Shown in pieces: positions 13,175-54,812 of a stretch of DNA of 64,000 nucleotides. The position numbers and the translations under genes were made by a program. The stretch is taken from positions 48,639 through 112,638 of the forward strand of contig CAWIRL010000010.1 in the NCBI GenBank assembly GCA_963838545.1, written 5' to 3'. The notes under the pieces are model-generated. The model had not been told where the DNA came from and ran no database searches. It saw only the letters and a list, made by a program, of their open reading frames with translations. Source of the stretch: an uncultured Acidobacteriota bacterium (GTDB lineage: Bacteria; Acidobacteriota; Terriglobia; Acidiferrales; UBA7541). How positions within the stretch are numbered: the stretch's first letter is position 1; every line of letters starts with the position of its first letter.

Positions 13175-13182
13175 CCGCGGAG

Positions 13183-17998: not shown

Positions 17999-18016
17999 GC
18001 TTTCGGGAGAGCAACT

Positions 18017-19000: not shown

Positions 19001-19008
19001 CCTGCGAA

Positions 19009-24317: not shown

Positions 24318-24342
24318 TCTTTCCTCCGAGAATTGGAATGGA

Positions 24343-37267: not shown

Positions 37268-37807
37268 ATGGAGGCTCCGCCGATGGAACTACGATTACCG
37301 GATGCAATTTTGATTCTCGGCAAGACGCCCGCATGCCTGGATCTTCTGCTGCGGGATCTTCCGGACGAATGGCTGCGCGCGAACGAAGGGCCGGACACCT
37401 GGAGCTGCTACGATGTGGTCGGCCACTTAGTTCACGGCGAACTCACCGACTGGATGCCGCGATTGCAGATCATTCTCGAGCACGGCGCCGCGCGCGCGTT
37501 CACGCCCTTCGACCGCTTCGCGCAGCTGCAGAACGATAAGTCGAAACCGATCGGCGAGGTGCTCGACCGCTTCAAATTTCTACGCCAACAAAATCTCCAG
37601 CGCCTTGAAGATTTGCATCTGACGGCACAAGACTGGAGCCGCCCCGGCAAGCACCCGGAACTCGGCGCGGTGACACTGGGCCAACTCATTTCCACGTGGG
37701 TAGTGCACGACCTGACGCACTTCAACCAAATCCATCGCGTGATGGCCAAGCAGTATTCCGAAACGGTTGGCCCCTGGAAGCAATATCTCTCCATCCTGAC
37801 GCGGTGA
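37268..37807 (+). CDS. DinB-family (DinB_2-like) four-helix-bundle metalloprotein
   Basis: 179 aa. His triad context 'YDVVGHLVHGE' .. 'STWVVHDLTHFNQIHRV'. Confidence 0.75.
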   Translation: MEAPPMELRLPDAILILGKTPACLDLLLRDLPDEWLRANEGPDTWSCYDVVGHLVHGELTDWMPRLQIILEHGAARAFTPFDRFAQLQNDKSKPIGEVLDRFKFLRQQNLQRLEDLHLTAQDWSRPGKHPELGAVTLGQLISTWVVHDLTHFNQIHRVMAKQYSETVGPWKQYLSILTR

Positions 37808-37967
37808 AGCGGCATTGGTTATTTCAAACGCGCTGCTTTGCGATGTGACGGAATCCGCGCTGATCCGTCAAAACCCTGCAGACGTCCTCGGTGTGGACTA
37901 TAATTCCGCGCGAATTGCGCTTGGATGCAAAGATGCAAACCAAATTCGTTTTCTGAGAGATGAACTG

Positions 37968-39614
37968 ATGCGAAGGATTTTTTTCACTGTTGAAGTGCTT
38001 GCGCTGCTGATCCTGGCTTCGGCGGCCACGGTGGCTCGCGCGCAATCGAAAGAGGATTCCGCCGACGCCAAGCCGAAGTCTGCAGCGCGCGAAATTTTCA
38101 AGGTGGAGCAGCAGGCGAGCAAGGGATCGGTAACGATCGGCGGAAAAAGCATCGCCTATGACGCCTATGCGGGAACGATCGTGGTGCACCCGAAAGGCTG
38201 GGACGACGTGCCGCAGAATTACGAGGCCGACACCGAAGCCTCGAACGACAAGAGCAAGAAAAATTTGCCGCAGCCGGAAGCCAGCATGTTTTACGTGGCG
38301 TATTTCAAATCCGGCGATGCGGCCGCGCACCGGCCGCTGACGTTTCTGTTCAACGGCGGACCGGGCTCCTCCACCGTGTGGCTGCACATGGGCGCGTTTG
38401 GCCCCAGACGCGTGGTGACGGCCGACAATTCGCACACCGCGGCGGCGCCTTATCCCGTGGTGAATAACGATTACAGCTTGCTCGACGCGAGCGATCTCGT
38501 TTTCGTGGACGCGCCCGGCACGGGCTTCAGCCGCATCGCGGGCAAGGATCGCGAAAAGGCTTTCTATGGCGTGGATGCGGATGCCGAGGCCTTCGCCGAT
38601 TTCATTTCACAATTTCTCTCGAAATATTCGCGCTGGAATTCGCCGAAATATTTATTCGGCGAAAGTTACGGCACCACGCGCTCGGCGGTGCTCATCAATG
38701 TGCTGGAAAACAGCCGCGACATTGATTTCAACGGCGTGATCCTGCTTTCGCAGATTCTGAACTTCGATAACAGCGCGGATATTCCGCAATACAATCCCGG
38801 CATTGACTTGCCTTATCAACTGGCGCTGCCGACTTACGCCGCGACGGCGTGGTATCACCACAAGCTGGCGCCCGATGCGCCGAAAGAATTGGCGCCGCTG
38901 CTCAGCGAGGTGGAGCATTTTGCCATGACCGACTACGGCGTAGCGCTGGCGGAAGGATCGGCGCTCGCACCGGAGCGGCGCGCTGCGATCGTCGCGAAGC
39001 TGCACGAATACACCGGCCTTCCCGCAGAGTACATCGAGAAAGCCGACCTGCGCATCAGCGGCGGCGAATTCGAAAAAACGCTGCAGGACAACGACTCGAC
39101 CACCACCGGACGGCTGGATTCGCGCTTTTCCGGTCCCACGCTTGATCCGCTGAGCAAGGAAGCGGAATACGATCCGCAATCCGCGGCGATCAGTTCGGCG
39201 TATGTTTCGGCGTTCAATGATTACGTGCGGCAGGAGTTGAAATTCGGCGAGGGCAGGGAATTCAAGCCGGGAATTGACGCTTGGAAATTCTGGGATTTCC
39301 GTCACAAGCCGCCCGGAGCGAGCGATCCTGTGATCTCCGCGGCGAATGTGATGACGGATCTGGCCAGCGCGATGAAGCAGAATCCGAATCTGAAAATTTT
39401 GTTGAATGCTGGTTATTTCGATTTGGCCACGCCTTTTTATGAGGGCATCTACGAGATGCAGCATTTGCCGATTCCGATGAAGCTGCAGGGGAATATTGAA
39501 TATAAATTTTATGAGTCTGGGCATATGGTTTATGCGCATGAGGCTTCGTTGAAAGAAATTCACGATAATGTGGCGGCGTTTATTCGCGGTAATGTGACTG
39601 GGAGTTCGAGGTAG
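37968..39614 (+). CDS. Secreted serine carboxypeptidase, peptidase family S10
   Basis: I prefer the ATG at 37968, which gives a signal peptide (MRRIFFTVEVLALLILASAATVARAQ). 'FLFNGGPGSSTVWLHMGAFGP', nucleophile 'LFGESYGTTRSAVL', and 'YESGHMVY' near the C-terminus. Confidence 0.85.
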   Translation: MRRIFFTVEVLALLILASAATVARAQSKEDSADAKPKSAAREIFKVEQQASKGSVTIGGKSIAYDAYAGTIVVHPKGWDDVPQNYEADTEASNDKSKKNLPQPEASMFYVAYFKSGDAAAHRPLTFLFNGGPGSSTVWLHMGAFGPRRVVTADNSHTAAAPYPVVNNDYSLLDASDLVFVDAPGTGFSRIAGKDREKAFYGVDADAEAFADFISQFLSKYSRWNSPKYLFGESYGTTRSAVLINVLENSRDIDFNGVILLSQILNFDNSADIPQYNPGIDLPYQLALPTYAATAWYHHKLAPDAPKELAPLLSEVEHFAMTDYGVALAEGSALAPERRAAIVAKLHEYTGLPAEYIEKADLRISGGEFEKTLQDNDSTTTGRLDSRFSGPTLDPLSKEAEYDPQSAAISSAYVSAFNDYVRQELKFGEGREFKPGIDAWKFWDFRHKPPGASDPVISAANVMTDLASAMKQNPNLKILLNAGYFDLATPFYEGIYEMQHLPIPMKLQGNIEYKFYESGHMVYAHEASLKEIHDNVAAFIRGNVTGSSR

Positions 39615-39636
39615 TAGGTGGCGAGGTTGCCGGTTT

Positions 39637-39671
39637 GGGGGGACAGACGCCGGCAGGCTGCCGGCGTTACG
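39637..39671 (+). repeat. REP-like hairpin element, family 1, copy b
   Basis: GGGGGGACAGACGCCGGCAGGCTGCCGGCGTTACG. The stem ACGCCGGCA / TGCCGGCGT closes a GGC loop. It lies between convergent genes. Confidence 0.7.
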
Positions 39672-39750
39672 AAGATCACGGCAATGTGGCGTTCATTCGC
39701 GGCAATGTTGCTGGCGAGTTCAGAGTAGTAGGTCGCAAGGTCGCCAGGTT

Positions 39751-39784
39751 GGGGGACAGACGTCGGCAGGCTGCCGGCGTTACG
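39751..39784 (+). repeat. REP-like hairpin element, family 1, copy c
   Basis: GGGGGACAGACGTCGGCAGGCTGCCGGCGTTACG, with one mismatch relative to copy b. Confidence 0.7.
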
Positions 39785-39806
39785 GGTTCGCGGCTCGGCT
39801 TCCGCG

Positions 39807-41630
39807 TTACGTTGCCAGCGGGATGGTGAAGTGGAATTGCGAGCCTTGGTTTACTGCGCTGTCTACCCAGATGCGGCCGCCGTGGGCTTCTACTATGTGC
39901 TTGGCGATGGAGAGGCCTAGGCCGGTGCCGCCTACCTCGCGGCTGCGGGCTGCGTCCACGCGATAGAAGCGCTCGAAGATGCGCTCTTTGTCGGCTAGCG
40001 GAACGCCCACGCCGGTGTCCGCGACGGTGACCACCGCTTCGGAATCGCGCGTGACGGCGCTTAACGCGATTTTGCCGCCGGGCTGCGTGTATTGCACCGC
40101 GTTATCGAGCAAATTCTGCAGCACTTCGCGCAACAGGCTGGCATCGCCGCGCACCGGCGGCAAGCCCGGCGGAAAACTTACATCGAGCGACAAATTCCGC
40201 TGGCTGGCTTTCAGCAGTGTGGTGGTGGCGCAGCTTTCCATGATATCGGCCAGCGCCACGGGCTGAAATTCCAACTCGAGCTTGCCGGCTTCGATGCGGG
40301 CTAGTTTCAGGAGATCGTCGGTGAGGCGCCCGAGGCGCACGGCGTGATCGCGGATAATTTGCAGGAAGCGGCGATTATTTTGTTGGTCTTCGAGCGCGCC
40401 GCTTAGCAACGTTTCAGAGAAGCCCTGGATCGCGGTGAGCGGCGTTTTGAATTCGTGGGAGACGTTGGCGACGAAATCCTGGCGCACGCGCTCGAGGCGG
40501 CGTAGCTCGGTGATATCGTGCAGCACGATCACCGCGCCGCGCTGCTGTGCTTCCGCGCGCGACGAAACGCCGCCGGCGGCTTCTGCGGCGGCGCCCGCGT
40601 GGGCGTCAGCCTGCGAAGCTAGCGCTGTAATTGGCGCAGCAGTGACGCCAAAATTCCGCGGCGCCACGGTGCCCAGCACCAAATCGCCCTGCACATTCTC
40701 GCCACTCTGCAACGCGCGGCGCGCCAGCTCCACCAAATCTGCCTGCCGCACCACTTCCAGCAGCGGCCGGCCTTCACTCCGCGCTGCGTCAATGCCCAAA
40801 ATTTCCGCGAACGCCTGATTGCAGAAAACGACGCGCTCTTTGGCGTCAATCACCGCAACGCCTTCCACCATGCTGCGAAGGATGGCGCTCGAGCGATTGC
40901 GCTCGTCGGTGAGCGTGCGAATATTTCCGGCCAGGCGCGCCGCGGTTTCATTCAGCGCGCGAACCAGGTCGGTAAGTTCGTCCTCGGTATCCTCGCGCTC
41001 CAGCGGACGAAAATCTCCGGCGGCAACGCGTCCGGCGAAATCCTTCAAGCGCTCGACGCGCATGGAAAATCCGCGCGAAACGAAAAACGAAACCGCGCCG
41101 CCCAATATAAGGATGAGCAGCGAGGCCACAATGAGCCGATGGCGCACCACGGCAATCGCTTCGCTTACTTCCGCCAGCGGCACAGCCATGCGCAGCACTA
41201 CGGGCGATCCGGCCGGCGGCTGGTAACGCACGGCGCGGTACACCAAATCGCGATTGACGGTCGCGCTGTGACGCACGGATTCTCCCGCGCCATTCGCAAA
41301 CGCCTCGCGAATCTCGGGCCGGCCAGAATGATTTTCCATTTTGGCGGGATCTTCGGCGGAATCGGCGAGCACCAGGCCGTCGAAAGCGATCACGGTAACG
41401 CGCGCGCCGCTCTGCGACATCCCTTCCGCCCAAGCGCGCAACGCGGGAAGGTCGTCAATTTGCGGCGGATGCGCCTGCGCCGTTTTTTCCAGCGCGGCCA
41501 GCTCGTTTTCAGCGGACTGGATATATTCGCTCCGCAAGATGCGCGAGACGTAGAAATTCACCGCGGCCAGGACGGCCAGCAGGAGCAGCAGATACGTCAG
41601 CCCCAATTTCCAGAAGAGCTTAGCTCGCAC
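39807..41630 (-). CDS. phoR: PhoR-like phosphate-regulon sensor histidine kinase (TM-periplasmic-TM, HAMP, PAS, HisKA, HATPase)
   Basis: 607 aa. 'FVANVSHEFKTPLTAIQGFSETL' is a PhoR-type H-box. 'LLDNAVQYT', 'DTGVGVP', 'GGTGLGLSIAKHIVEAHGGRIWVDS'. It overlaps the upstream response regulator by 11 nt, and phoU is 3 kb away. Confidence 0.8.
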   Translation of the reverse strand: MRAKLFWKLGLTYLLLLLAVLAAVNFYVSRILRSEYIQSAENELAALEKTAQAHPPQIDDLPALRAWAEGMSQSGARVTVIAFDGLVLADSAEDPAKMENHSGRPEIREAFANGAGESVRHSATVNRDLVYRAVRYQPPAGSPVVLRMAVPLAEVSEAIAVVRHRLIVASLLILILGGAVSFFVSRGFSMRVERLKDFAGRVAAGDFRPLEREDTEDELTDLVRALNETAARLAGNIRTLTDERNRSSAILRSMVEGVAVIDAKERVVFCNQAFAEILGIDAARSEGRPLLEVVRQADLVELARRALQSGENVQGDLVLGTVAPRNFGVTAAPITALASQADAHAGAAAEAAGGVSSRAEAQQRGAVIVLHDITELRRLERVRQDFVANVSHEFKTPLTAIQGFSETLLSGALEDQQNNRRFLQIIRDHAVRLGRLTDDLLKLARIEAGKLELEFQPVALADIMESCATTTLLKASQRNLSLDVSFPPGLPPVRGDASLLREVLQNLLDNAVQYTQPGGKIALSAVTRDSEAVVTVADTGVGVPLADKERIFERFYRVDAARSREVGGTGLGLSIAKHIVEAHGGRIWVDSAVNQGSQFHFTIPLAT

Positions 41631-42375
41631 GGGTTTCGAACAAGTAGCCGGCGCCGCGAATCGTCTTTACGTAGGAGGGAACCTGCGGATTCTCTTCGAT
41701 TTTCTCGCGCAAGCGGCGGACGTAGACGTCCACGCTGCGCGGCGTGACGAAGCGGTCGGTGCCCCAGACGGCGTCAAGAAGCTGGTCGCGCGAAAAAACT
41801 TTGTTGGGCCGCGCGGCGAGATAGTAGAGCAGGCGGAATTCGAGCGTGCTGAGCGGCACTTGCTTGCCCGAGCGCGTCACGCGATAGGCCGCAGGATCGA
41901 TGCGCAGCACGCCGACATCAATCAATTTTTCGGTGGCGACGGCCGGCTCAACGCGTCGCAAGAGCGCCTTCACGCGCGCGACGAATTCGCGCGGGCTGAA
42001 TGGCTTCGTGACGTAATCATCCGCGCCCAGCTCGAGGCCGACGACGCGGTCCGCTTCTTCTCCCCGCGCCGTAAGGATCAGGATGGGCAGGCGATTGAGC
42101 GCGGCATCGCGGCGGACTTCTTTGCAGATTTCCAGGCCCGAAAGTTTCGGCAGCATCAAATCGAGCACCAGCAAATCGGGCGGCGACTTCTTCACCTGCG
42201 CCATGCCGATGGCGCCATCGGTGGCGGTGAAGACCTGATAGCCGTCCTTCTCGAGGTTGTAGCGGACCAACTCGATGATGTCGCGGTCGTCTTCGATGAC
42301 CAGAATTTTCTTCTTGATCACAGCCTCCCGGCCCTCTTTTCCGTCCACCTTAATGGAACCTGCCGATTCAAGCAA
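41620..42375 (-). CDS. phoB: PhoB-like OmpR-family response regulator
   Basis: REC ('KILVIEDDRDIIELV', 'DLLVLDLMLPKLSG') plus a winged-helix domain ('LSTLEFRLLYYLA', 'VDVYVRRLREKIE', 'IRGAGYLF'). The true start may be the GTG at 42321 (GGGAGG just upstream, VIKKKILVIEDD) rather than the ORF-track start at 42375. Confidence 0.8.
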   Translation of the reverse strand: MLESAGSIKVDGKEGREAVIKKKILVIEDDRDIIELVRYNLEKDGYQVFTATDGAIGMAQVKKSPPDLLVLDLMLPKLSGLEICKEVRRDAALNRLPILILTARGEEADRVVGLELGADDYVTKPFSPREFVARVKALLRRVEPAVATEKLIDVGVLRIDPAAYRVTRSGKQVPLSTLEFRLLYYLAARPNKVFSRDQLLDAVWGTDRFVTPRSVDVYVRRLREKIEENPQVPSYVKTIRGAGYLFETRAS

Positions 42376-42411
42376 GACTTGGAGATAGGGCTATTTTGCC
42401 TTGCGAGTTTT

Positions 42412-42447
42412 GTGACGCAGATTACGGGAGCATTACAATCGCGTGAC
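42412..42447 (-). promoter_or_regulatory. Candidate Pho box upstream of phoB-phoR (divergent with the Clp-like/TonB receptor genes)
   Basis: The minus strand reads GTCAC-N6-GTAAT-N6-GTAAT-N4-GTCAC, with pentamers at 42447, 42436, 42425 and 42416. The first three are at 11-bp phasing. The same GT[CA]A[CT] half-site occurs upstream of phoU. Confidence 0.35.
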
Positions 42448-42661
42448 TCGGAAACGAACCGCGGGTTTCAATCCGAACCAATTTGCGCGGCCTGAAGCGG
42501 AATCCGAACGAGCGGGGGAAATTCCCGAAATGGCAGGCGTAGAAGGGCTGTGCTTGCAGTGATTTACGCGTCTGCTCCGATTTGAATTTGGCCATCCTTG
42601 TGCTCAATGCCTCGCGGGTTCATGCGGACGCCGGGGCGGCCGCAGCGAAAAGGGGGACCCC

Positions 42662-43948
42662 ATGAGCACCCAGCCACGCAAACTTCTCAATCCATTTTTG
42701 CGCAGCAGCGAATCGCAGGATTTCGAGTCTGGCTTGCGGCGAAAAATTGTGGGCCAGGACGAAGCCGTGCAAGCGGTGGTGGATCTATACCAGGTATTTC
42801 GTGCCGGACTGAATTCGCCCGGGCGCCCGGTGGGCAATTTGCTTTTCCTTGGGCCGACCGGTGCGGGGAAGACGCGGGTGGTGGAGGCCACGGCTGAAAT
42901 TCTCTTTGGCGATCCGCGCGCGGTGATCAAAGTGGACTGCGCCGAATTTCAGCACTCGCACGAAATCGCGAAATTGATTGGCTCGCCGCCGGGATATCTC
43001 GGGCATCGCGAGACGCACCCGTTGATCACTCAGGAAGCTCTCGGGCAGTTTCAAACCGAAAAGCTAAAGCTCTCCTTTTTGCTGTTCGACGAAATCGAAA
43101 AAGCCTCGGACTCATTGTGGCAGTTGCTATTGGGCATTCTGGATAAAGCCACACTCACGCTTGGTGATAACCGCCGCGTGGATCTCTCGCAGACCATGAT
43201 TTTCATGACTTCGAATCTCGGCGGCGGTGAAATTACGGAACTGATGACCGGCGGCCTGGGCTTTGCTCCGCAACAACTGCCGGAGAATCGAGCAGGACTT
43301 GATGAAAAAGTGGAACGCACCGCGTCCGAAGCCGCCAAGCGGAAATTCGCGCCTGAATTCATGAACCGCATTGACAAAGTGGTTGTCTTCCATCCTTTGC
43401 GCACCGAGCAGCTTGAATCCATTCTGGAGATTGAGTTGGGCATGGTGCAGCAGCGCGTGCTCGAGACCGCGCGCGGCAGATTTCTGTTCCGCGTCACTCC
43501 CGCGGCGCGTGAATTTCTGCTCAAGGAAGGAACGGATCTGAAATACGGCGCGCGCCACCTGAAGCGTTCGATCGAGCGGCATCTCGTCTACCCGCTGGCG
43601 AGCCTGCTGGCCACCGAGCAGGTAAATCTCGGCGACGTGCTTTCGATTGATTGGGACGATAGAAATTTCTGCCTGGCTTTCGATCGCGTCGCGGCCGGCG
43701 CGCCATTGCCGCCTATTCCCGGACAACGCACGGCCGTCGCCGCTGCCGGAGAAACTACCGGCCGCGGCGAACCCGCCACCGGAATTCGCGGCGTGCCCGA
43801 TGCCGTCTGGAGCGGCTTGCGCAAACCGGCCGATGCCGCTTCGCCACTTGGCGGCAACACCGCCCATACCGCCCACGCCGTTCCGGTCGAAGACAAGAGC
43901 GCCGAATCGAAAGGGAACAGGCCCACGCCCGTCGAGCCTCGCAAGTGA
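42662..43948 (+). CDS. Stand-alone Clp/Hsp100 D2-type AAA+ ATPase (AAA_2 plus ClpB_D2-small), no N-domain or D1
   Basis: 428 aa. 'IVGQDEAVQAVV', Walker A 'LFLGPTGAGKT', 'IGSPPGYLGH', Walker B 'LLFDEIEKA', sensor-1 'IFMTSNLG', 'NRIDKVVVFHPL', sensor-2 'GARHLKRSIE'. There is a low-complexity C-terminal tail. Confidence 0.85.
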   Translation: MSTQPRKLLNPFLRSSESQDFESGLRRKIVGQDEAVQAVVDLYQVFRAGLNSPGRPVGNLLFLGPTGAGKTRVVEATAEILFGDPRAVIKVDCAEFQHSHEIAKLIGSPPGYLGHRETHPLITQEALGQFQTEKLKLSFLLFDEIEKASDSLWQLLLGILDKATLTLGDNRRVDLSQTMIFMTSNLGGGEITELMTGGLGFAPQQLPENRAGLDEKVERTASEAAKRKFAPEFMNRIDKVVVFHPLRTEQLESILEIELGMVQQRVLETARGRFLFRVTPAAREFLLKEGTDLKYGARHLKRSIERHLVYPLASLLATEQVNLGDVLSIDWDDRNFCLAFDRVAAGAPLPPIPGQRTAVAAAGETTGRGEPATGIRGVPDAVWSGLRKPADAASPLGGNTAHTAHAVPVEDKSAESKGNRPTPVEPRK

Positions 43949-45400
43949 AGTTCGCCACGGGTCCCGATCGGCGCAGCTCGCTTGATGGACTCGACGAGCC
44001 ACCGACCGGTGCGGCCGCGCGAAATTTATCCCGCCGCATAATACTTGCCATTCTCGCTCTCCCATCCATATGGCTGATGCTCGCCGCCCCGGCGCGCTCG
44101 CAGTCGGATCCCCCGCGAAGCCAATCTCCTTCGCCCGATCTTTCGTCGAAAAGCCTCGAAGATTTGATGAATACCGAAGTGACTTCGGTATCGAAGAAGG
44201 AACAAAAACTTTCGCAGGTGGCCGCGGCGATTTTCGTGATTTCCGCAGAGGACATCCGGCGCTCGGGCGCCACGAACATCCCCGATTTGCTGCGCATGGT
44301 GCCGGGGTTGGACGTCGGCCAAATCAACGGCAGCACCTGGGCCATCAGCGCGCGCGGATTCAACGCGCAATTCAGCAACAAACTGCTGGTGATGATTGAC
44401 GGCCGGGTGGTGTACACCCCGAATTTCGCCGGCGTTTATTGGGACACGCTCGATTTTCCTCTTGAGGACATTGAAAGAATTGAAGTAATTCGCGGCCCGG
44501 GCGGGACGGTTTGGGGCGCGAACGCGGTCAACGGTGTGATCAGTATTTTCACCAAGACCGCGGCGGAAACGCGCGGCGGCGTGGTGCAGGCCGGCGCGGG
44601 AAATATTCAGCAGGGTTTCGGACTCGCGCAATACGGCGGAGGGTGGAAAAACGCGGTGGACTACCGCGTCTACGCGAAATATTTCAATCAATATCACCTG
44701 TCCAGCCTCAGCGGTCAAAACGGGTTTGACGATTGGCACATGTTGCGCGGCGGATTCCGCGTTGACAGCACTCTCTCGCCGAAAGACACACTGATGCTGG
44801 AGGGCAGCCTCTACACCGGCCGCGAAGACGAACTCGGCTTCGTGCTGCCTGCGGTGATGCAATCCACAGAACCCTCCCGTTCTTTTTTTGAAGCCACTCC
44901 GGCTCCGGCGCACGAGGTTCAGCTCTTCACCTATGAAAACTTGATGCGCGGCCACACCTACGGATTTGAAATTGCCGGAAAGTGGAAAGCCACGGATCGC
45001 TGGAGCCTCAGCCCCGGTTATGCGCTCAGAGCTTCTCCAGATGCATACCGATCCCGCAAGCCTGGACACGATTACTCCGTTCTTCGTTGCAGACGGTGCG
45101 CCGCGCCACAGCGCTCAGTTGCGCTCCCACTTCGACGCCGGCCACGGGCTGAGCTGGGATGCTGCGGCTTATTTTAACGGCCGCCTGAGCCATCAAGGCC
45201 TCACCGACGATCAGGCAATTCCAGCATACGCGCGGCTGGACGCCAGCCTCACCTGGAAGCCGCGCGAAAGAATCTCGTTCGTGCTCGCCGGACAGAATTT
45301 GCAGCGCGACCATCACCTCGAATTTGAGGACGTCTTCGGAAGCATGCAGAGCGGCCAGGTGAAGCGCAGCGGCTATCTCGCAATCGAGTGGCGTTTCTAG
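43945..45400 (+). pseudogene. TonB-dependent receptor paralog with a large internal deletion and a frameshift
   Basis: The GTG at 43945 overlaps the upstream stop (GTGA). The plug is nearly identical in pattern to the next gene ('SLEDLMNTEVTSVSKKEQKLSQVAAAIFVISAEDIRRSGATNIPDLLRMVPG'). About 230 aa of barrel are absent relative to 45419..47590. The C-terminus ('..SGYLAIEWRF') is in the ORF 44966..45400 frame. Confidence 0.7.
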
Positions 45401-45418
45401 ACGAAAGCCGGGAAGAAT

Positions 45419-47590
45419 TTGAAAGCACAGCACGCATTGGCGGCGTCACGTAAAAGCCGGCGGAGCTGCGCCGGACGGCAATGGGCGCGGCCTCGTCTCG
45501 CGAACCAATTCACGTTGTTGCACCGCGCCGCGCTGCAACGCACCTTGCTCCTGTTTGCCTGGCTTTTGCGCAGCAGGCTCCGGCAGTTCCGCGCCGCCGT
45601 GTTGTTGGCCATGCTCATATCGGCAGCCGCGCCGGCGGGGGCGCAGCAATCCTCCGTTGATCTCGCCGGCAAAAGCCTCGAAGACTTGATGAACACCGAA
45701 GTGATGTCCGCCTCGAAAAAAGAACAAAAGCTTTCGCAAGTCCCCGCGGCCATGTTCGTGATCACTCAGGAAGATATCCGCCGCTCCGACGCCACGAATA
45801 TTCCCGACCTGCTGCGCATGGTCCCGGGCGTGAACGTGGCGCAGATCAACGCCAACACCTGGGCCATCAGCGCGCGCGGGTTCAATGAGGAATTCTCCGA
45901 CAAATTACTCGTGCTGCTGGACGGCCGCGCCGTTTACACGCCCACCTTTTCCGGCGTCTATTGGGACACGCTCGACGTTCCGCTCGAAGATATTGACCGC
46001 ATCGAAGTAATCCGCGGCCCCGGCGCCACCATTTGGGACGTCAATGCCGTCAACGGCGTCATCAATATCCTTACCAAAAAAGCCGGCGACACTCGCGGCG
46101 GCTTCCTCAGCGCCGGATTCGGCACGCAGGCGCAGGGCCTCGGCACCGCGCAATACGGCGCACCCATCGGCGCGAAAGCCGACTACCGCATTTTCGCCAA
46201 ATACGCCAACGTCAGCGATTTTCCCGGCATTTCCGGCCAGCCCACGGAAGATGCCTGGCACCTGCTGCGCGCCGGCGCGCGCCTCGACGCGCAGCTTTCC
46301 GCCAAAGACTCGCTCACTCTGCTCGGCGACATTTACACCGGCGAAGAAGGCACCATCCGCGAGGACATCATTTCCATTTCGCCGCCGCTGAATGGCGTCG
46401 CGAACACCATCACGCATGTTTCCGGTGGAGACATCGTCGCGCGCTGGACGCAAACGCAATCCGAGCGTTCCGAGACTTCGCTGCTTCTCTATTACGATTA
46501 TGACGAGCGCAGCTCTCAGGACGCCATTCACGAGGACCGCAGCACCTACGACGTCGAATTCCAGCATCACCTGCAAATTTCCCCGCGCAACGACCTCGTC
46601 TGGGGCGTTTCTTACAGAAATTCCCGCGCCACGACGCAAGGCAATCTGAATTTCTCGTTCGATCCCGCCGCGCACACCAGCCAATTCTTCAGCGTCTTCG
46701 CTCAGGACGAAATCACCGTCGTAAAAGACCGCCTGCTCTTGACCATCGGCGCGCGTTGGGGCTGGGAGGATTACACCGGCGATAGCCTGCAACCCGCCGC
46801 GCGAATTCTGTGGACGCCCACTGCCGGCCAGGCGCTCTGGTTCGGCGTCTCCCACGCGCATCGCACTCCTTCTTTCCTGGAGACTTCCGGGCGCCAGAAC
46901 ATTTCCGCCTTCACCGGTCCAGGCGGCGTCCCGGCGCTCGAAAGCGAAATCGGAAATCCGCATCAGAAAGACGAATCGTTAGTCGCGTGGGAAATCGGCT
47001 ACCGCCGGCAACTTTCGAAACGCGCCTCGCTCGATCTCGCCGCGTTTTTCAATCGCTATTCGCATATCGGCAGCGTCGAGCCGCAAGATTCTTTCACCGA
47101 GTCTGCTCCTCCTCCGCTCCATTTGGTATTTCCGTTCCGTAACGCCAACGGCCTCCACGGAGAAACGCACGGCATCGAACTCGCCGCCAACTGGCAAGTC
47201 ACCGCGCGATGGTCTCTGCGCCCCATTTACTCCCTGCTCGAAATGCACATGCATCGCGATCCCACCAGTCTCGATTTCGATACCGCGCCGGAAATCGAAG
47301 GCAGCGATCCCCGCCAGCGCGCCGGCCTGCAATCGCATGTCAATTTCGGCCACGGCTTCAGTTGGGATGCCTCCGCCAATTTCGTCGATCGTCTGCGCGC
47401 CCAGCGCGTTCCTGCGTATACGCGCCTCGATACCGGCCTGCTCTGGCAGGTGCGCGAGCGATTTACGCTCACCGTCGCCGGTCAAAATCTGTTGCGCGAC
47501 CATCACGCCGAGTTCAGCGATCTTTTCGGGGACAGCATTCCGGATGAAATCAAGCGAAGCGCTTACGTCAAGCTGGCCTGGCGCTTCTGA
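45419..47590 (+). CDS. TonB-dependent receptor (plug plus beta-barrel)
   Basis: 723-aa ORF. An in-frame TTG at 45566 (MRSRLRQFRAAVLLAMLISAAAPAGAQQ) gives a better signal peptide than the listed start. Plug 'SLEDLMNTEVMSASKKEQKLSQVPAAMFVITQEDIRRSDATNIPDLLRMVPG', 'IEVIRGPGATIW', C-terminal 'SAYVKLAWRF'. Confidence 0.85.
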   Translation: MKAQHALAASRKSRRSCAGRQWARPRLANQFTLLHRAALQRTLLLFAWLLRSRLRQFRAAVLLAMLISAAAPAGAQQSSVDLAGKSLEDLMNTEVMSASKKEQKLSQVPAAMFVITQEDIRRSDATNIPDLLRMVPGVNVAQINANTWAISARGFNEEFSDKLLVLLDGRAVYTPTFSGVYWDTLDVPLEDIDRIEVIRGPGATIWDVNAVNGVINILTKKAGDTRGGFLSAGFGTQAQGLGTAQYGAPIGAKADYRIFAKYANVSDFPGISGQPTEDAWHLLRAGARLDAQLSAKDSLTLLGDIYTGEEGTIREDIISISPPLNGVANTITHVSGGDIVARWTQTQSERSETSLLLYYDYDERSSQDAIHEDRSTYDVEFQHHLQISPRNDLVWGVSYRNSRATTQGNLNFSFDPAAHTSQFFSVFAQDEITVVKDRLLLTIGARWGWEDYTGDSLQPAARILWTPTAGQALWFGVSHAHRTPSFLETSGRQNISAFTGPGGVPALESEIGNPHQKDESLVAWEIGYRRQLSKRASLDLAAFFNRYSHIGSVEPQDSFTESAPPPLHLVFPFRNANGLHGETHGIELAANWQVTARWSLRPIYSLLEMHMHRDPTSLDFDTAPEIEGSDPRQRAGLQSHVNFGHGFSWDASANFVDRLRAQRVPAYTRLDTGLLWQVRERFTLTVAGQNLLRDHHAEFSDLFGDSIPDEIKRSAYVKLAWRF

Positions 47591-47593
47591 AAA

Positions 47594-48283
47594 ATGGGCG
47601 TGGCGAAAATAAACGACTGCCGGAATCCACGAATCTCGAAAGCGGCCGCCGCTTCTCGCTCGCGCGCCGTCGTTCGTGCGTCGCTGCTCAGCGCCCCGCT
47701 GCTCAGCGCCCCTGTGCTGGCCGCCGCGCTGCTCGCCGCCGCGCTGTGCATCGCCGTTCGGCCGCTGACTTCTTTCGCCGATGGCGGCGCCGAGCAGGCG
47801 CCCACCGAATATCAGGTGAAGGCCGCGTTTCTTTTCAATTTTGCGCGCTTCGTCGAATGGCCGCCGCGCGCCTTCGCCTCTCCCACTTCGCCGATCGGCG
47901 TCTGTGTGCTCGGCGAGGATCCTTTCGGGGAGGCGCTGAACCGCGTCGTCGCCGGAAAAATGCTCAACGACCGCACGCTGATGGTCGTCCGCGCCAAAAA
48001 ACTTCGCGAGCTCAGCGGCTGCGAAATTCTTTTCATCAGTTCTTCGGAGCGCCAACGCTTGCCGGAAATTCTCGAGGAATTGCGCCATGCGCCCGTGCTC
48101 ACCGTCGGCGAGACCGAAGGCTTCGCTTCGCGCGGCGGCGAAGTGCAATTCACTCTCGAAGAAAGCCGCGTGCATTTCCTGATCAATGTGGATGCCGCCG
48201 AGCGCGCCGGCCTGAAAGTCAGCTCCAAGCTGCTGAACCTCGCGCGCGTGGTGCACGACGATCCGCCGCGAAAGAAGGACTAA
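47594..48283 (+). CDS. YfiR-like periplasmic protein (DUF4154 family)
   Basis: 229 aa with a signal peptide. '[19 protein letters not shown]', 'CEILFISSS', '[16 protein letters not shown]', '[27 protein letters not shown]'. It starts 3 nt after the receptor stop. Confidence 0.8.
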
Positions 48284-48284
48284 T

Positions 48285-51200
48285 ATGAACTGGATGCGCC
48301 AGCGTTCCATACGCCAGAAATTAACCCTCATCGTCATGGCCACCTGCGCCGCCGCGCTCATCCTCGCCGGCAGCGCTCTCGCCGGATACGACCATTACGC
48401 CTTCCGCCGCGAAATGGTCCGCGAGCTGGAAACTCTGGCGCAAATTACCAGTTCCAATAGCTCCGCGGCCCTGGCCTTCAATGACACCAGCGCGGCGGAA
48501 GAAATTCTCGGGGCGCTCGCGGCGCAAAAGCAGATCGTTCATGCCTGCCTCTATGCCCGCAACGGCAAGCCCTTCGCCACGTACTCGCGCTCCGGCAGCG
48601 GGAAGGATTTCCAGCCGCCCGCGGCGGAGCCCGGCGGCAGCCGCTTCACCTCCGGCCGCCTCATCGCCTTCCAGAAAGTGACGGTGCAGGAAGAATCGGT
48701 GGGAACGCTCTACCTCGAATCCGATCTGGAAGGCGCCCGCGCGCATTTAATGCGCAATATCGCCGCCATGGCCGCGGTGCTCTTGATTTCCATTATCGCC
48801 GCTTACCTTCTGGGCTCGCGTCTCCAGGAAACCATTTCGGGGCCGGTGCTGGAACTCGCGCGCACCGCTTTCGCCGTGACCATGGAGAACGACTACACCA
48901 TTCGCGCGCAGAAGACCACCCAGGACGAAATTGGCTTCCTTTACGAACAGTTCAACGAAATGCTGGATCGCATCCAGCAGCGCGATGTCGAGCTAAAGCA
49001 GCACCGCGCCGATCTGGAGCAGCGCGTCGCCGATCGCACCGCCGATCTCCGCCATAAAGTCGCCGAAGTCCAGGCCGCCGAAGAAGCCGTGCGCAAAGGA
49101 AAGGAGCGCCTGCAGGCGGTGCTCGAGTCGGTGGACGACATCGTCATGGAGGTTGACGGCGAGTGCACCTACATCAACGTCTGGAACCAGCGTAACGACC
49201 TGCTGCTGAAGCCTCGCGAGGAGCTACTCGGGCGAAAAGTGGGCGAGTTTCTGCCGGAGGAGATCACCGGGCGGATCTTCGAAGCCATTCGCCGCACGCT
49301 GCTGACCGGAAAAACCGAAATCGTCGAGTATCCGAAGGCCCTGGCGGCCGGCGAGCGCTGGTTCGCCGCGCGCTTGACGCGTATTCCCGCCGAGGCAGGT
49401 GTGCAGCCCACCATCTGCGCCGTCGTGCGCGACATTACCGAGAGCCGCAACGCTGCCCAGGAACTCCAGCGCGCCAAGGAAGCCGCCGAAGCCGCCAGCG
49501 ACGCCAAGAGCGAATTCCTCGCCAACATGAGCCACGAAATTCGCACGCCCATGAACGGCATTCTCGGCATGACCGAGCTCACTCTCGACACCGAATTGAC
49601 CCGCGAGCAGCGGGAGTATCTCAAGACCGTCAAAAATTCCGCCGACGCGCTTCTCATGGTCATCAACGACATTCTCGACTTCTCCAAAATCGAAGCGGGC
49701 AAGCTCGAGTTCGAGCGCGTTGATTTCAATTTGTGGGTCTCGCTCGGCGAAACCATGGAGGCCCTCGCTCTGCGCGCTCACCAGCGCGGGCTCGAATTCG
49801 CCTGCCGCATTCGCCCCGACGTGGATCAGTGGGTCACCGGCGATCCCGGCCGCCTGCGCCAGGTGCTTGTGAATTTGATCGGCAACGCCATCAAGTTCAC
49901 CGAGAGCGGCGAAGTGGTCCTCGAAGTCGCCAAAGATGGCGACGACGCCGCGGGCGCGCTGCTGCATTTCGCCGTCCGCGACACCGGCATCGGCATCCCC
50001 AAAGAAAAACAAAGTCTGATCTTCGGCGCCTTTACCCAAGCCGATAGCTCCATGTCCCGCCGCTACGGCGGCACCGGCTTGGGCCTGGCCATCACTCATC
50101 GCCTAGTGGAAATGATGGGCGGGCGCATCTGGGTGGAAAGCGAGCCGGGACACGGCAGTACTTTTCATTTCACCGCGCGCTTCGGCCGCGCTCTGCCGCA
50201 GGAAATTCCCGCGCATCGCGGCAAGCCTGAGAAGCTTCGCGGCCGCCGCGTTCTGATCGTTGACGACAATGAATCCGTCCGCGACATTCTCGAGGAAATC
50301 TTTACCGCCTGGCGCATGCTGCCCACCGCGGTCGGCGACGCTGCCGCGGCCATTCGCGAACTCGAACTCGATCCGCAAACGCGCTCGCCGTTTGCACTCG
50401 TGGTCGCCGATGCGCAGATGCCCGGCGGGGGCGGTTTCGATCTGGCTCGCGAAATTCAGCGCCGCTTCGGCTCGCGCGCGCCCAAGTTTGTGATGCTCAG
50501 CTCCACCGCAAAAAGCGAACTGGCATCCGCTGAGCGCAGGCAGGGAATTGACGCGTTTATTTCCAAGCCCATCCAGCAATCCCAATTGCTCGATACCCTC
50601 CAGGACATTTTTGATCCGGCATTCGAGGAGCCGCACGACGCCGCGCCGGCGCCAACGCGCGCGCCGGAAGAAGGGAGCCCGCGAATGAGAATTCTGCTGG
50701 CGGAAGACAACGCGGTGAACCGGCTGGTCGCCACTCGCTTGCTCGAAAAGGGCGGATACGACGTGATCGTCGCGGAGAACGGCCGCGAAGCCGTCGAGCT
50801 GGCGGCGCAGGGAAATATTCAGCTCGTGCTCATGGACGTGCAGATGCCGGAAATGGACGGCTTCGAAGCCACGCATGCTATCCGCGATCGCGAACGCGAA
50901 TCAGGAGCGCACCTGACCATCGTCGCCATGACCGCGCACGCCATGAAAGGCGACCGCGAACGGTGTCTCGCCGCCGGCATGGATGACTACCTCACGAAAC
51001 CCATCCGCAGCGCCGATCTCTACGAAATGCTCCGGCAGCACACTTCAAGCAGCTCTCCAAAATTGCCGAAAATGCCTGAGCTCGAGCGCGTCTCGGGATT
51101 GCAGGTCTGGGATCTCGAGAAAGCCCTGGGGCGCGTCGGCGGAGACCGCGACCTGCTCGGCGAGCTGATGCTCATTTACGAAAGGGAATGTCCGAAATTG

Positions 51201-51446
51201 CTCGCGGCCATAGGCTCCGCAATCGTGCGCGGCGATTCTGCCGCTCTCGAATTGAACGCGCACGGCTTGAAGGGCGCATCCAGCAATTTTTCCGCCGGGC
51301 CCGCGGCGGATCGCGCGCGCGAACTCGAAATGATGGGGCGCAACGCGCAGCTCGAAGGCGCCGCCGAAACGCTGGCTCGCCTCGAAACGGAAATCGCACG
51401 TCTGCTCGCTGAATTCGAGACGTTCCCGAGGAAAGTGGCCACCTGA
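48285..51446 (+). CDS. Hybrid sensor histidine kinase: TM, CHASE8-like periplasmic domain, TM, HAMP, PAS, HisKA, HATPase, REC, REC, Hpt
   Basis: 1053 aa. CHASE8-like '[76 protein letters not shown]'. '[22 protein letters not shown]', '[35 protein letters not shown]'. Receivers '[20 protein letters not shown]' and '[23 protein letters not shown]'. Hpt '[14 protein letters not shown]'. Confidence 0.9.
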
Positions 51447-53599
51447 TGCCGCAGCCCGGCAAATTTCGGAGCGCGCTCGCCGATTGGCGCGGCCGCAATG
51501 GCCCGCAGCGGCTGGCCATGGGCATCGCTTTCGTGTTTGTCTATCTGCTTCTCGATCGCTCGACGGTTTACTTTCAGCTCTGGTCCGGCATCAGCGCCTG
51601 GTATCCGCCGGTGGGAATGGCTCTGGCTCTTCTCACCGATCTCGGTCTCTCATTCGCTCCCTGGTTTCTTTTGGCCGGCTGCCTGGCCGGAATCGTCAAC
51701 TATCACACCCCGGTGCTCTCCTACGGCTTCCTCTTTGAAAATCCGATGATCGTCGTGGGTTACACCATCACCGCCTGCCTTCTGCGCCGCAATCGCGCCA
51801 GCGGAGAAGGATTCCCGCGTCTGAACGGCGTCATCCGCTTCGTGCTGATTTCCACCTGCGGCTCGTTCGGAGTCGCTGCTCTGGGCGCCTGGGGAGTGCT
51901 GGCCGATGGCGGCATCACTCGGGCCGAATATCCCACGGCGCTGCTGAATTGGTGGGCGGGCGATGCCGTCGCGATGATCTGCCTCACGCCCTTTCTGCTC
52001 GTGCACGTCACGCCGCGCCTCGCGGAGTTCGCCGGGAAAAGCACTCGCAGCGATCGCGCTCAAAATCGCCACGAAGCAATTCCGGCCGCAAGCTCGCCCC
52101 GCGAAAATTGCATTCATTGCATTGAGACCGCCGGGCAAACCACCTCCATTTTCCTCGCCGTGTGGATCGTGTTCGGCTGGAACCTGGCCCGCAGCTATGA
52201 ATTCTTCTATCTCTTTTTTCTGCCGATTATATGGATTGCCGTGCGCCGCGGGCTCGGCGGAGCGTCTGCGGGAATCCTGGCTCTGAATTTCGGCGTCATG
52301 CTCATCCTCAGCCAGTTCCCGGACGATCGCCACCGCCTGGCGCTGATGCAGGTCCTCATGCTCATCGTTTCATTGACCGGCCTCAGCCTCGGCGCGCTCG
52401 TCAGCGAAACGAAAAGAATTCACGCCCTGTTGCAGGAGCGCGAAGAGCGCTTCCGCCTCGGTTTCGAGGAAGGCCCCGTAGGCATGGCCATGGTGGACCG
52501 CGACCTGAAATTCGTAAACGTGAACCGCGCCTACGCCGAAATGCTCGGCTATACGCCGGAGGAAATGCGCGCCCTCACCGTTCTCGACATCACTCATCCC
52601 GCCGACGTTGACCAGCAAGTTCCGCGAGCCGGCTACATGTTGCGCGGCGAAATGGAACGCTTCCGCATCGAGAAGCGCTACTTCAAAAAGTCCGGCGAAA
52701 TCGTCTGGGTAGACGTCGCCGCTGGACTCATCCGCGACGCCGCCGGAAACGCCCTCTACGGTTTCGGCGTCGCCCAGAACATCACCGAGCGCAAACACGC
52801 CGAAGCCGAACTCCTGCGCGCAAAGGAAGCCGCCGAATCCGCCAATCGCGCCAAAAGCGAATTCCTCGCCAACATGTCCCACGAAATCCGCACGCCCATG
52901 AACGGCATCCTCGGCATGGCCGAACTCGCTCTCGATACTCCCCTCAACGATGAGCAATCCGAATATCTCCGCAACGTCCAGATCTGCGGCGAAACCCTCC
53001 TCACCCTCCTCAACGACATTCTCGATTTCTCCAAAATCGAGGCCGGCAAGCTCGAGCTCAACTCCGAACCCTTCAATATTCGTGAAGCCATCACCAACGT
53101 CTACAAATTACTCGCCCCTCGCGCGCAGCAGAAAAGCATCCGCATTTCCTGCCGCGCCGCGGAAAATCTTCCCCCCTCCGCCGTCGGCGATGCCATGCGC
53201 CTCAAGCAAGTGCTCACCAATCTCCTCGGCAACGCCATCAAATTCACCCTCAAAGGCCACATCGCCGTCAACGCCGCCATCGAAAGCGCCGATCCCGATT
53301 CCTTCCTCGTGCACTTCTCCGTTCAGGATTCCGGCATCGGCATCGCCCCGGAAAAGCAAAAGCTCATCTTCGACGCCTTCACCCAAGCCGATAGTTCCAC
53401 CACTCGCCGCTTCGGCGGCACCGGCCTCGGTCTCACCATTTGCCGCCAGCTCGTGGAATTGATGGGCGGACGCATCTGGGTCGAAAGCACGCCCGAGCAG
53501 GGCAGCACCTTCCATTTCACCGCGCGATTCGGCCATTCCCAGGCAGACCGCGAACTTCACGCCGCCGTCGCAGGCGGAATTCAGGAGAAAACCGCATGA
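51446..53599 (+). CDS. Sensor histidine kinase with a MASE1-like membrane domain, PAS, HisKA, HATPase (no receiver)
   Basis: 717 aa. The ATG overlaps the previous stop (TGATG). Multi-TM N-terminus with '[15 protein letters not shown]'. PAS '[16 protein letters not shown]'. '[22 protein letters not shown]', '[35 protein letters not shown]'. Confidence 0.85.
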
Positions 53600-54591
53600 A
53601 CGCCGAAGTCACTCCCAATAGCACCAACATCCTTGTCGCCGAAGACGATCTCGTTTCCCGCCGCGTCCTCGAAGTGTTTCTCGCTCGCTGGGGTTACCGC
53701 GTCACTTCCGTTTCCAGCGGCGATGATGCCTGGCGCGTCCTCACTTCCGACGCTGCGCCTCGTCTCGCCATCCTCGACTGGATGATGCCCGGCATGGAAG
53801 GCGTGGAAGTCTGCGCCAAGCTCCGCGAGCGCAAGGACAAGCCCTACACCTACGTCATGCTTCTCAGCTCCCGCACCGAGAAAAAGGATATCCTTCAGGG
53901 TCTCCAGGCGGGCGCCGACGATTACATCACCAAGCCCTTCGACGCCGAAGAGCTCCAGGCCCGCCTCTTCGTCGGCGAGCGCATCCTCCATCTTCAGGAC
54001 GAACTCATCTCCGCCCGCGACGCCCTGCAATTCCAAGCCACCCACGATCCCCTCACCGGCATCGCCAATCGCGGCGAAATTCTCACTCAGGTCCAGCGCG
54101 AGATCGCCCGCTGCCAGCGCACCGGCAAATCCATCGGCCTCATTCTCGCCGACGTGGATCACTTCAAGAAAATCAACGACACGTACGGCCACCTGACCGG
54201 CGACGCCATTCTTCGCGGCGTCTCCATGCGCCTCACCGCTCTCCTGCGCACTTACGATTCCGTCGGCCGCTACGGCGGCGAGGAATTCGTTATCCTTACG
54301 CCGCTCTCCGATGCCGCCGGCACCGTCCGCGTCGCCGAAAGAATTCGCGCCGGCATCGAAGCCACGAAATTCGACACCGCCGCCGGAGAACTCCGCCTCA
54401 CCATGAGTTTCGGCGTCTCTTCCCGCGATGACGGCCACACTCGCGATACTGAAGCCCTCCTCCAGGCCGCCGATGCCGCGCTCTATCGCGCCAAAGCCGC
54501 CGGCCGCAATCGCGTCGAGCTGGCCACCTCCGCCGATTTCGAAAATCTGGTCCTCGCCGGACCGCCGCCCATTGACGCGCGCCGCCCCTGA
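53596..54591 (+). CDS. Response regulator-diguanylate cyclase (REC-GGDEF)
   Basis: The ATG at 53596 overlaps the kinase stop (ATGA), with AGGAG 9 nt upstream. REC '[32 protein letters not shown]'. GGDEF '[11 protein letters not shown]', '[17 protein letters not shown]' (GGEEF with an RxxD I-site 5 residues upstream). Confidence 0.9.
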
Positions 54592-54812
54592 TCCCCGCGC
54601 GCCGCGGATCTCCATCGCTAGCAAATCAATCCGCCCTAAATCTCCACCCCGCGGCGCTGCTTGCGCCCGCGCCCCCGCCCGCACCATCGCAACATCAACT
54701 CCCCGCACCCGCCCTTTTCATGAGACATTTTCTCCAGCCGCGTGTTTAACAGGAAGCGTTCGACCGAGTGTTTCGAACAACTCGCGTCGCACGCAGACAA
54801 GGCCCGCATCCC

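Follow-up and report, generated by a model that had tools for sequence, protein, structure and literature searches.

We analysed a 64-kb stretch of DNA from an uncultured acidobacterium (the window; contig CAWIRL010000010.1), in which five consecutive + strand genes at 45419-54591 are best explained as encoding a three-compartment envelope sensor that would work on the YfiR/YfiN principle. The genes encode a TonB-dependent receptor of the TOL_0244 family (45419..47590), an exported YfiR-like protein of the TOL_0243 family (47594..48283), a hybrid sensor kinase of 1053 amino acids (aa) designated as HK1 (48285..51446), a receiver-less kinase of 717 aa designated as HK2 (51446..53599) and a REC-GGDEF diguanylate cyclase of 331 aa (53596..54591). 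In the core of this reading, to which we give a probability of about 0.55, the YfiR-like protein would control HK1 through its CHASE8 domain, the receptor would be the input and a phosphorelay would end at the cyclase. The reading builds on the observed domain architecture, the homology to YfiR and to the sensor half of YfiN, the conserved linkage of the genes and the intact residues. YfiBNR, which has been studied well, leads from the state of the envelope to cyclic di-GMP (c-di-GMP) and biofilm persistence. The domain calls of a first-pass annotation of this DNA were all reproduced by Pfam well above gathering scores, and the motifs that it quoted (KLAWRF in the receptor, the YfiR signature, NAHGLKGAS in HK1, and RxxD with GGEEF in the cyclase) are present.

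The YfiR-like protein and the CHASE8 kinase

The YfiR-like protein has a signal peptide extending to approximately aa 62 and a DUF4154/YfiR domain (47810-48247; Pfam, E 3.5e-49), with the quoted family signature at aa 72-90. A phmmer search against PDB sequences aligned it with Pseudomonas aeruginosa YfiR over almost the entire mature length (E 2e-5). In an AlphaFold2 model, the predicted local distance difference test score (pLDDT) is above 90 for aa 71-220, and the best 15 PDB fold matches of the model are all YfiR, with target-normalised template modelling (TM) scores of 0.69-0.76. By sequence and predicted fold, the protein is a true YfiR homologue. The fold matches that follow YfiR are small substrate-binding proteins and an L-Trp-bound ABC-type binding domain.

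Across 43 homologues, the most conserved residues are located in the N-terminal helix (E72, A77-L80, N82, F86, W89, and P90) and in a C-terminal stretch (N198, A201, L207, S211, L213, L214, L216, and A217). The segment N198-A217 aligns with the surface and hydrophobic pocket of P. aeruginosa YfiR (L166/I169/V176/P178/L181). This pocket binds Phe57 of YfiB (F57) and overlaps the proposed YfiN site (PMC4887326), and an unfolded N-terminal segment of YfiB is captured by YfiR through strand pairing and insertion into the pocket (PMC4655355; PMC4887326). The residues C104 and C143 are the counterparts of C71/C110, the first, redox-sensitive cysteine pair in YfiR, and are nearly invariant among the 43 homologues. 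The wider family is large: at E ≤ 1e-3 the query matched 23,769 representatives of clusters formed at 50% identity, and at E ≤ 1e-30 it matched 2,256. Natural fusions to a receptor or a sensor were sought in ten long representatives, and no credible extra domain was found in them. Five are tandem DUF4154 duplications, and the other five have a single DUF4154 with unannotated extensions. The tandem double-DUF4154 relatives (P0140, P0013, P0141, P0142, and P0161; 340-480 aa) are covalent “dimers” that agree with the crystallisation of YfiR as a dimer.

In HK1, a first transmembrane helix (TM1), a CHASE8 domain (48405-48716; Pfam, E 9.4e-19), TM2, HAMP (48831-48980) and PAS_4 (49122-49448) are followed by the kinase core of HisKA with H417 (49503-49700) and HATPase_c (49839-50180). 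Two Response_reg domains, REC1 with D709 (50247-50609) and REC2 with D851 (50691-51032), and an Hpt domain (51162-51410; E 3.3e-11) with H993 in the motif NAHGLKGAS complete the protein, which belongs to the TorS/BarA/LuxQ type of hybrid kinases, as indicated by NCBIfam matches to these families with E values as low as 1e-156. Between the TM helices, the periplasmic module, given earlier as about 150 aa, is closer to 120 aa (approximately residues 36-157). Residues 7-233 (TM-CHASE8-TM-HAMP) align from end to end with positions 2-224 of the DgcN/YfiN model NF007423 (E 2.3e-26), and the periplasmic domain of YfiN is itself classed as CHASE8 (PMC8085984). Judged by sequence, the locus holds the input half of YfiN joined to a kinase in place of GGDEF, and the alignment of the HK1 N-terminus identifies the YfiR-like protein and CHASE8 as a predicted canonical repressor/sensor pair with a kinase output. 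The statement of the first-pass annotation that the operon has no YfiN is thus literally true, as there is no fused GGDEF, but it overlooks that the YfiN input module is present in HK1. The CHASE8 domain had no match among PDB sequences, and a homologue search with the HK1 sensor domain returned only 19 fragments, which were unusable for a census of output domains.

Conservation of the module

The three genes for the receptor, the YfiR-like protein and HK1 match a trio of NCBIfam models (release 20) that are named for genes of Thalassolituus oleivorans MIL-1: NF053590 (TOL_0244-family receptor), NF053591 (TOL_0243-family YfiR-like protein) and NF053592 (“sensor histidine kinase, YfiR-like protein-associated”), with curated cut-offs of 645, 125 and 194 bits, respectively. 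Two of the cut-offs are passed in the window. The YfiR-like protein scored 164.2 bits (aligned positions 1-149 of 150), and HK1 scored 223.5 bits as the whole protein and 228.3 bits with its N-terminal 235 aa (1-223 of 223). The receptor narrowly missed the cut-off with 598.5 bits (E 1.5e-179; 2-604 of 604), and the runner-up receptor model reached only 122 bits. The curators at NCBI already recognise this association of receptor, YfiR-like protein and kinase, and the locus is best filed as a member of the trio with lineage-specific additions. The term “uncharacterised” in the first-pass annotation therefore holds insofar as no experimental study of a receptor/YfiR-like/CHASE8-kinase module, and no paper that draws a relevant link between TonB receptors and DUF4154 or YfiR, was found in the literature; it does not hold in that the trio is catalogued. 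The only experimental datum found for the TOL_0244/TOL_0243 family is a proteomic one, namely a sevenfold rise of TOL_0244 on solid n-C28 alkane that was read by its authors, without genetics, as pointing to an alkane transporter (PMC6304351).

The tight packing of the operon was reproduced with the exact positions claimed earlier. The receptor and YfiR-like genes are separated by 3 nt (TGA 47588-47590, AAA, ATG 47594) and the YfiR-like and HK1 genes by 1 nt (TAA 48281-48283, T, ATG 48285), while the HK1/HK2 junction is a TGATG overlap (51444-51448) and the HK2/cyclase junction is an ATGA overlap of 4 nt (53596-53599). Purine runs resembling Shine-Dalgarno sequences (AAGGA, GGAAAG, and AGGAG) precede three of the four internal starts, and the genes are spaced equally tightly in the relatives L001-L003. 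The cyclase start, ATG 53596, lies within a longer open reading frame (ORF) at 53440-54591. Terminator-like + strand sites within the unit did not exceed chance in a promoter/terminator scan.

The conservation survey used one genome per GTDB species. Among 141 confirmed relatives of the YfiR-like protein, the best 80 were fetched with 10-kb flanks, all ORFs were translated, and these were scored by single-sequence phmmer with the domains of the window, so that absences are soft; the 80 loci are the ones most similar to the query, and their frequencies are estimates for the closest subfamily only. Going by record titles, they span about ten phyla and include several classes of Acidobacteriota, Verrucomicrobiota, Geobacter, Desulforhabdus and other “Deltaproteobacteria”, Alpha- and Gammaproteobacteria, Nitrospinota, Ignavibacteria, Zixibacteria, Methylomirabilota, Binatia, and Planctomycetota. 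A related receptor was found near the YfiR-like gene in 62 of the 69 loci with upstream room, directly upstream on the same strand in 56 of them, with some tandem pairs. CHASE8-type sensors were present in 75 of the 78 loci with downstream room (directly downstream in 73), and their outputs were a hybrid kinase in 47 loci (22 with Hpt), a plain kinase in 20 and GGDEF in four. These last four (L033, L034, L040, and L048) combine a receptor, a YfiR-like protein and a CHASE8-GGDEF protein; from their predicted architecture they are YfiR with a YfiN-like cyclase, the receptor standing where YfiB would be. Conservation of gene order beyond this genome, on which the first-pass annotation had staked its proposal, is strong for receptor, YfiR-like protein and CHASE8 kinase.

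It is very improbable that five independent signalling and transport genes merely came to lie side by side, through chance or local synteny. Receptors and kinases abound in acidobacterial genomes, as illustrated by another large, Oar-like receptor at 9512-13174 in the window, but the conserved order across phyla already contradicts this explanation. The junctions, none of which has a gap above 3 nt or an overlap above 4 nt, also argue against it, as do the reproduction of the YfiR/YfiN sensor pair and the modelling of the three families as associated in NCBIfam.

A self-contained sensor of redox state or envelope stress, formed by the YfiR-like protein and the CHASE8 kinase, would leave the receptor as co-regulated cargo or a mere neighbour without input. 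YfiR of P. aeruginosa is a YfiB-independent redox sensor (PMC4655355; PMC4887326), its redox-sensitive pair is kept as C104/C143, and the loci without a detected receptor (7 of 69) fit such a sensor. Adjacency of the receptor in 62 of 69 loci and about ten phyla, often with translational coupling, is nevertheless far tighter than expected for cargo. The receptors moreover form one coherent family that is modelled together with the YfiR-like protein, and the operon contains no DNA-binding regulator that would make the receptor a transcriptional target. We consider this explanation improbable, though less so than chance packing.

The additional genes of the window are less widespread. A REC-GGDEF gene follows the kinase in 21 of the 80 loci, 20 of them acidobacterial and one “deltaproteobacterial”, and the MASE1 kinase is found in 6 of 80; both are lineage-specific additions outside the conserved core. 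The earlier description as an envelope-to-c-di-GMP relay is therefore apt for this lineage but not for the module.

The absence of YfiB was also borne out. Six-frame translations of the 64-kb window contained no OmpA/YfiB-type motif (N..LS..RA..[VA]), and Pfam found no OmpA in the flanking genes. Among 88 loci, genuine OmpA-type matches were confined to a MotB gene, and two more matches to the regular expression (L004/L005) were antisense within the kinase gene. A candidate YfiB in seven Terriglobales loci (L030, 5061-7763 on the - strand, with the same motif in L031, L032, L035, L041, L044, and L047) was rejected because the OmpA-type motif is that of MotB, beside MotA and a PAS-GGDEF gene. 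In these seven loci, the module is preceded divergently by the PAS-GGDEF gene and the MotA/MotB stator pair, a motility/c-di-GMP neighbourhood.

The receptor, the phosphorelay and the proposed mechanism

The receptor consists of a plug (45731-46060; Pfam, E 7.9e-22) and a barrel (TonB_dep_Rec_b-barrel, 46328-47587; E 4e-31) that ends with KLAWRF. Its start is probably TTG 45566 (MRSRLRQFRAAVLLAMLISAAAPAGA|QQ), since homology to the relatives begins at 45560-45572, and this start gives a normal signal peptide. A candidate TonB box, TEVMSAS, is assigned by position at 45695-45715. Comparison of 42 family members revealed a conserved motif, DLxxxSLExLMN, directly before the putative TonB box and sparse conservation beyond the plug. 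Only the plug aligned with PDB sequences (CirA, PfeA, and BtuB), so that no substrate can be inferred. No inner-membrane transporter is co-encoded.

The cyclase comprises Response_reg (Pfam, E 2e-26) and GGDEF (E 3.8e-45) domains and matches the PleD-family model NF007135 (E 2.4e-67). Its GGEEF motif is at residues 227-231 (54274-54288), and an RxxD I-site, RTYD, is at residues 218-221 (54247-54258), five residues before GGEEF. The phospho-acceptor and catalytic residues are intact throughout: H417, D709, D851 and H993 of HK1, H479 of HK2, and D61, GGEEF and RxxD of the cyclase. As the first-pass annotation had proposed for a separate soluble cyclase reachable by phosphotransfer, the sole receiver of the operon outside HK1 is the one on the GGDEF protein according to Pfam.

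HK2 contains MASE1 (Pfam, E 1.4e-16), PAS, HisKA with H479 and HATPase_c, and no receiver. Its catalytic core is 59% identical to that of HK1 in a gapless alignment of 258 aa, with almost no differences in the H-box helix. Apart from its own orthologues, the HK2 core is closest to the cores of the CHASE8 hybrid kinases (top identities 54-62%, mean over all 61 cores 49%), compared with a mean identity of 36% to the other kinases in the loci. This similarity hints, weakly because hybrid-type cores resemble each other generally, that HK2 may be a receiver-less hybrid-type kinase feeding the same receivers.

The course of events that we infer, which takes in every contact between the proteins, the direction of control, the ligand and the path of the phosphate, is as follows. 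The exported YfiR-like protein would bind the periplasmic CHASE8 domain of HK1 and fix one signalling state, as YfiR does in repressing YfiN. The TOL_0244-family receptor would fill the outer-membrane input role that is held by the lipoprotein YfiB in YfiBNR. In the preferred form of this step, ligand binding or TonB action at the receptor would bare the conserved N-terminal segment beside the TonB box, and the bared segment would capture the YfiR-like protein through the conserved C-terminal pocket that YfiR uses for YfiB, freeing the kinase. Phosphate would then pass from His417 to Asp851 and His993 and on to Asp61 of the REC-GGDEF protein, and c-di-GMP would be made under I-site feedback. 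The MASE1 kinase would be a later, lineage-specific second input that probably feeds the same receivers.

The capture step is put forward more tentatively than the core and is by itself less likely than not; we lean slightly towards it over an alternative in which the receptor only imports a ligand. We lean so because a receptor takes the place of YfiB also where the cyclase is of the YfiN type, because the partner pocket of the YfiR-like protein does not vary between phyla, in contrast to the sparse conservation of the receptor outside its plug, because the receptor family keeps DLxxxSLExLMN just before the putative TonB box, and because YfiR is known to capture an unfolded N-terminal segment of YfiB (PMC4655355; PMC4887326). 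If the receptor does gate the YfiR-like protein, this would be a new mode of signalling by TonB-dependent receptors that works without sigma and anti-sigma factors. One might then speculate that the induction of TOL_0244 on alkane could be reread as a surface or biofilm signal and not as alkane transport. A wider proposal, which we regard as doubtful, is that the TOL_0244-family receptors might constitute a second, undescribed class of TonB-dependent transducers, without STN or an anti-sigma partner, that would capture YfiR-like proteins by a YfiB-type mode of pocket insertion and strand pairing and relay ligand occupancy to CHASE8 kinases or cyclases in many phyla.

The role of the receptor as a TonB-gated switch on the YfiR-like protein was pure conjecture in the first-pass annotation, and simple import for sensing is about as likely. 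The receptor would then be an ordinary transporter whose ligand is read by the YfiR-like protein as a co-receptor docked on the kinase, or by CHASE8 directly, with no contact between receptor and YfiR-like protein. Precedents exist in the binding-protein co-receptors of TorT/TorS and LuxP/LuxQ and in PfeS, which senses enterobactin imported by PfeA. The normal plug and barrel with a TonB-box-like segment and no signalling domain suit this alternative, the lack of a co-encoded inner-membrane transporter agrees with a ligand that is used for sensing only, and YfiR has the fold of one half of a periplasmic substrate-binding protein, such proteins being next among the fold matches. The sevenfold rise of TOL_0244 on alkane (PMC6304351) is in line with it, as is the finding that the same pocket in P. 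aeruginosa YfiR takes up vitamin B6 and L-Trp (PMC4887326), but that binding is weak, with dissociation constants (Kd) of only 35-77 mM. An invariant pocket beside a sparsely conserved receptor also points to a protein partner that is conserved more than to a ligand that varies with the receptor, and four loci pair the receptor and YfiR-like protein with a YfiN-type cyclase, where the known role of YfiR is protein sequestration. If the receptor imports a ligand and does nothing more, which we consider slightly less likely than capture, the module would be a tidy and unsurprising import-and-sense system.

Several observations weigh against the sensor that we favour. The receptor has no STN signalling domain, Pfam giving the plug and barrel only, and we know of no STN-less receptor that signals; its score is also under the family cut-off of NF053590. 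The YfiR-like protein reached 45.1 bits with the canonical sequest_YfiR equivalog NF053586, for which the cut-off is 85. It lacks the Cys145-Cys152 disulfide, the aligned positions being A178 and Q185, and this disulfide is essential for the folding of P. aeruginosa YfiR (PMC4655355). The residues E163 and I169 of P. aeruginosa YfiR are replaced by L196 and A202. The seven loci that have the YfiR-like protein and the CHASE8 sensor and no detected receptor imply that the receptor is dispensable in some lineages, and the presence of REC-GGDEF in only 21 of 80 loci implies that c-di-GMP is not the general output of the module. The restriction of the survey to the loci most similar to the query counts on the same side.

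Known systems and the surrounding genes

The system resembles YfiBNR (TpbB/DgcN, and HmsCDE in Yersinia) in its periplasmic logic, yet it is not YfiBNR itself. Both have a periplasmic protein of the DUF4154/YfiR fold encoded beside a TM-CHASE8-TM-HAMP inner-membrane protein, an outer-membrane protein in the same operon, the C71/C110 pair and, in this lineage, c-di-GMP as the end product. Unlike in YfiBNR, the outer-membrane partner in the window is a TonB-dependent receptor of the 22-strand type and not the OmpA/Pal-like lipoprotein YfiB, and the CHASE8-HAMP region drives a hybrid kinase with Hpt and not a fused GGDEF, the cyclase being a separate REC-GGDEF protein. The YfiR-like protein also differs in the missing C145-C152 pair, the replaced equivalents of E163/I169 and the missed cut-off for canonical YfiR. 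Among five features of YfiBNR, only the YfiR fold was found; a match to NF053586, Cys145-Cys152, a fused CHASE8-HAMP-GGDEF protein and a YfiB/OmpA-type protein were absent. With the trio of NCBIfam, a family defined by annotation only, the window shares the same three-protein association, with the YfiR-like protein and the kinase sensor above the cut-offs and the receptor aligned over the full model. It differs from the trio in the receptor score, which lies below the cut-off, and in having the MASE1 kinase, the REC-GGDEF protein, an AAA+ gene upstream and a second receptor that has decayed.

FecA-FecR-FecI, FpvA and FoxA-type transducers likewise couple a TonB-dependent receptor genetically to a periplasm-spanning signal path and not to an inner-membrane transporter. 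Judging from its domains, the window system is nevertheless not a FecA-type transducer: the receptor has no STN, neither an anti-sigma nor an extracytoplasmic function (ECF) sigma factor is present in the locus (Pfam found no sigma or anti-sigma domain in the flanking genes), and the partners are a soluble YfiR-like protein in the periplasm and a histidine kinase in the inner membrane. In TorT-TorS, LuxP-LuxQ and PfeA-PfeS/R there is, as here, a binding-protein-like accessory encoded beside a hybrid kinase or a receptor that could deliver the ligand. The YfiR-like protein, however, has only half the length of a classical binding protein and comes from a family of repressors, the sensor of the kinase is CHASE8 and not a periplasmic domain of TorS or LuxQ, and the output in the window is a cyclase and not a DNA-binding regulator. 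The pathways PleC/DivJ-PleD, Wsp-WspR, Hk1-Rrp1 and CfcA-CfcR share a terminal REC-GGDEF protein with intact GGEEF and I-site and have no counterpart of the input by receptor, YfiR-like protein and CHASE8. This locus and its relatives show that use of the YfiR/CHASE8 pair extends far beyond YfiBNR. In the closest subfamily, the pair is usually accompanied by a TonB-dependent receptor as the outer-membrane partner and usually has a histidine kinase as its output. The module, as catalogued by NCBI, has culturable carriers in Geobacter hydrogenophilus DSM 13691 (L022) and T. oleivorans MIL-1.

The transcription unit probably runs from 42662 to 54591, i.e. it starts upstream with an AAA+ gene and the decayed receptor. 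The AAA+ gene (42662..43948, + strand), probably the first of the unit, encodes an ATPase of 428 aa that resembles the second nucleotide-binding domain of ClpB (Pfam AAA_2, E 1.5e-33; ClpB_D2-small, E 9.3e-15) and aligns with positions 559-851 only, the second ATPase domain, of the NCBIfam ClpB model. Its stop overlaps the GTG of the following ORF by 4 nt. The same gene is located 5' of the receptor or receptors in L001-3 and L006-7, and in 7 of the 80 species loci altogether. A cytoplasmic unfoldase-like AAA+ protein at the head of an envelope-sensor operon is odd. The sole notable promoter-like site, at 42410-42439, lies 5' of this gene, and overall counts of such sites are those expected by chance.

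The decayed paralogue of the receptor, a pseudogene, occupies 43945..45400 on the + strand and retains a Plug match (Pfam, E 1.8e-23). In a tblastn search with the intact receptor-1 of L001, aa 21-291 matched at 44032-44856, aa 519-576 at 44857-45030 and, in another frame, aa 570-698 at 45011-45397. This pattern indicates an internal deletion of about 227 aa at the junction 44856/44857 and a frameshift near 45011-45030. The close relatives L001-3, L010, L011 and L013 hold two intact tandem receptors. Further upstream, phoU, phoR and phoB are divergent (36299-42375), as in the related acidobacterial loci L001-L017, and pst genes also lie beside the pho genes in the relatives. A Pho box was sought in 42376-42661 because phoBR is divergent and syntenic; nothing convincing was found there except a 9-nt direct repeat, AATCCGAAC, with copies at 42470 and 42501.

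A contig from another sample (L088; ENA ERZ25039551 contig_27780) is 99-99.8% identical to the window at 34975-59512. It lacks 44858-48296 (3,439 bp), in which lie the remainder of the decayed receptor, the intact receptor, the YfiR-like gene and codons 1-4 of the kinase gene. The junction has a GATGC microhomology, and the left breakpoint is the internal-deletion junction of the window itself. The deletion may be real, or it may be an artefact of assembly. Of 115 differences in the downstream segment, 95, including 25 indel columns, are concentrated in 49400-50900, 1.5 kb of the kinase core. Decay of the operon after loss of the receptor and YfiR-like genes was considered and dropped as unproven, the differences being clustered in the kinase core; a fault of assembly or polishing, or a patch of recombined sequence, seems the better reading of the cluster. 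The GC-rich DNA yields long spurious antisense ORFs over the operon, e.g. 46979-48361 and 53581-54708 on the - strand, and in L088 the public gene caller picked antisense ORFs instead of the REC-GGDEF gene.

The best protein matches are from metagenome-assembled genomes of Acidobacteriota (Terriglobia, Acidiferrales-like). The cumulative GC skew reaches a maximum at approximately 24000-26000 and then declines through the rest of the window, which may only mirror a change in gene orientation. An unrelated cluster for carbohydrate use occupies 9512-22743. It contains a 1220-aa Oar-like receptor with CarboxypepD_reg and OMP_b-brl_4 domains at 9512-13174, an unannotated 644-aa protein, two PfkB kinases, a SIS protein, a melibiase/GH31-like hydrolase and an amidohydrolase.

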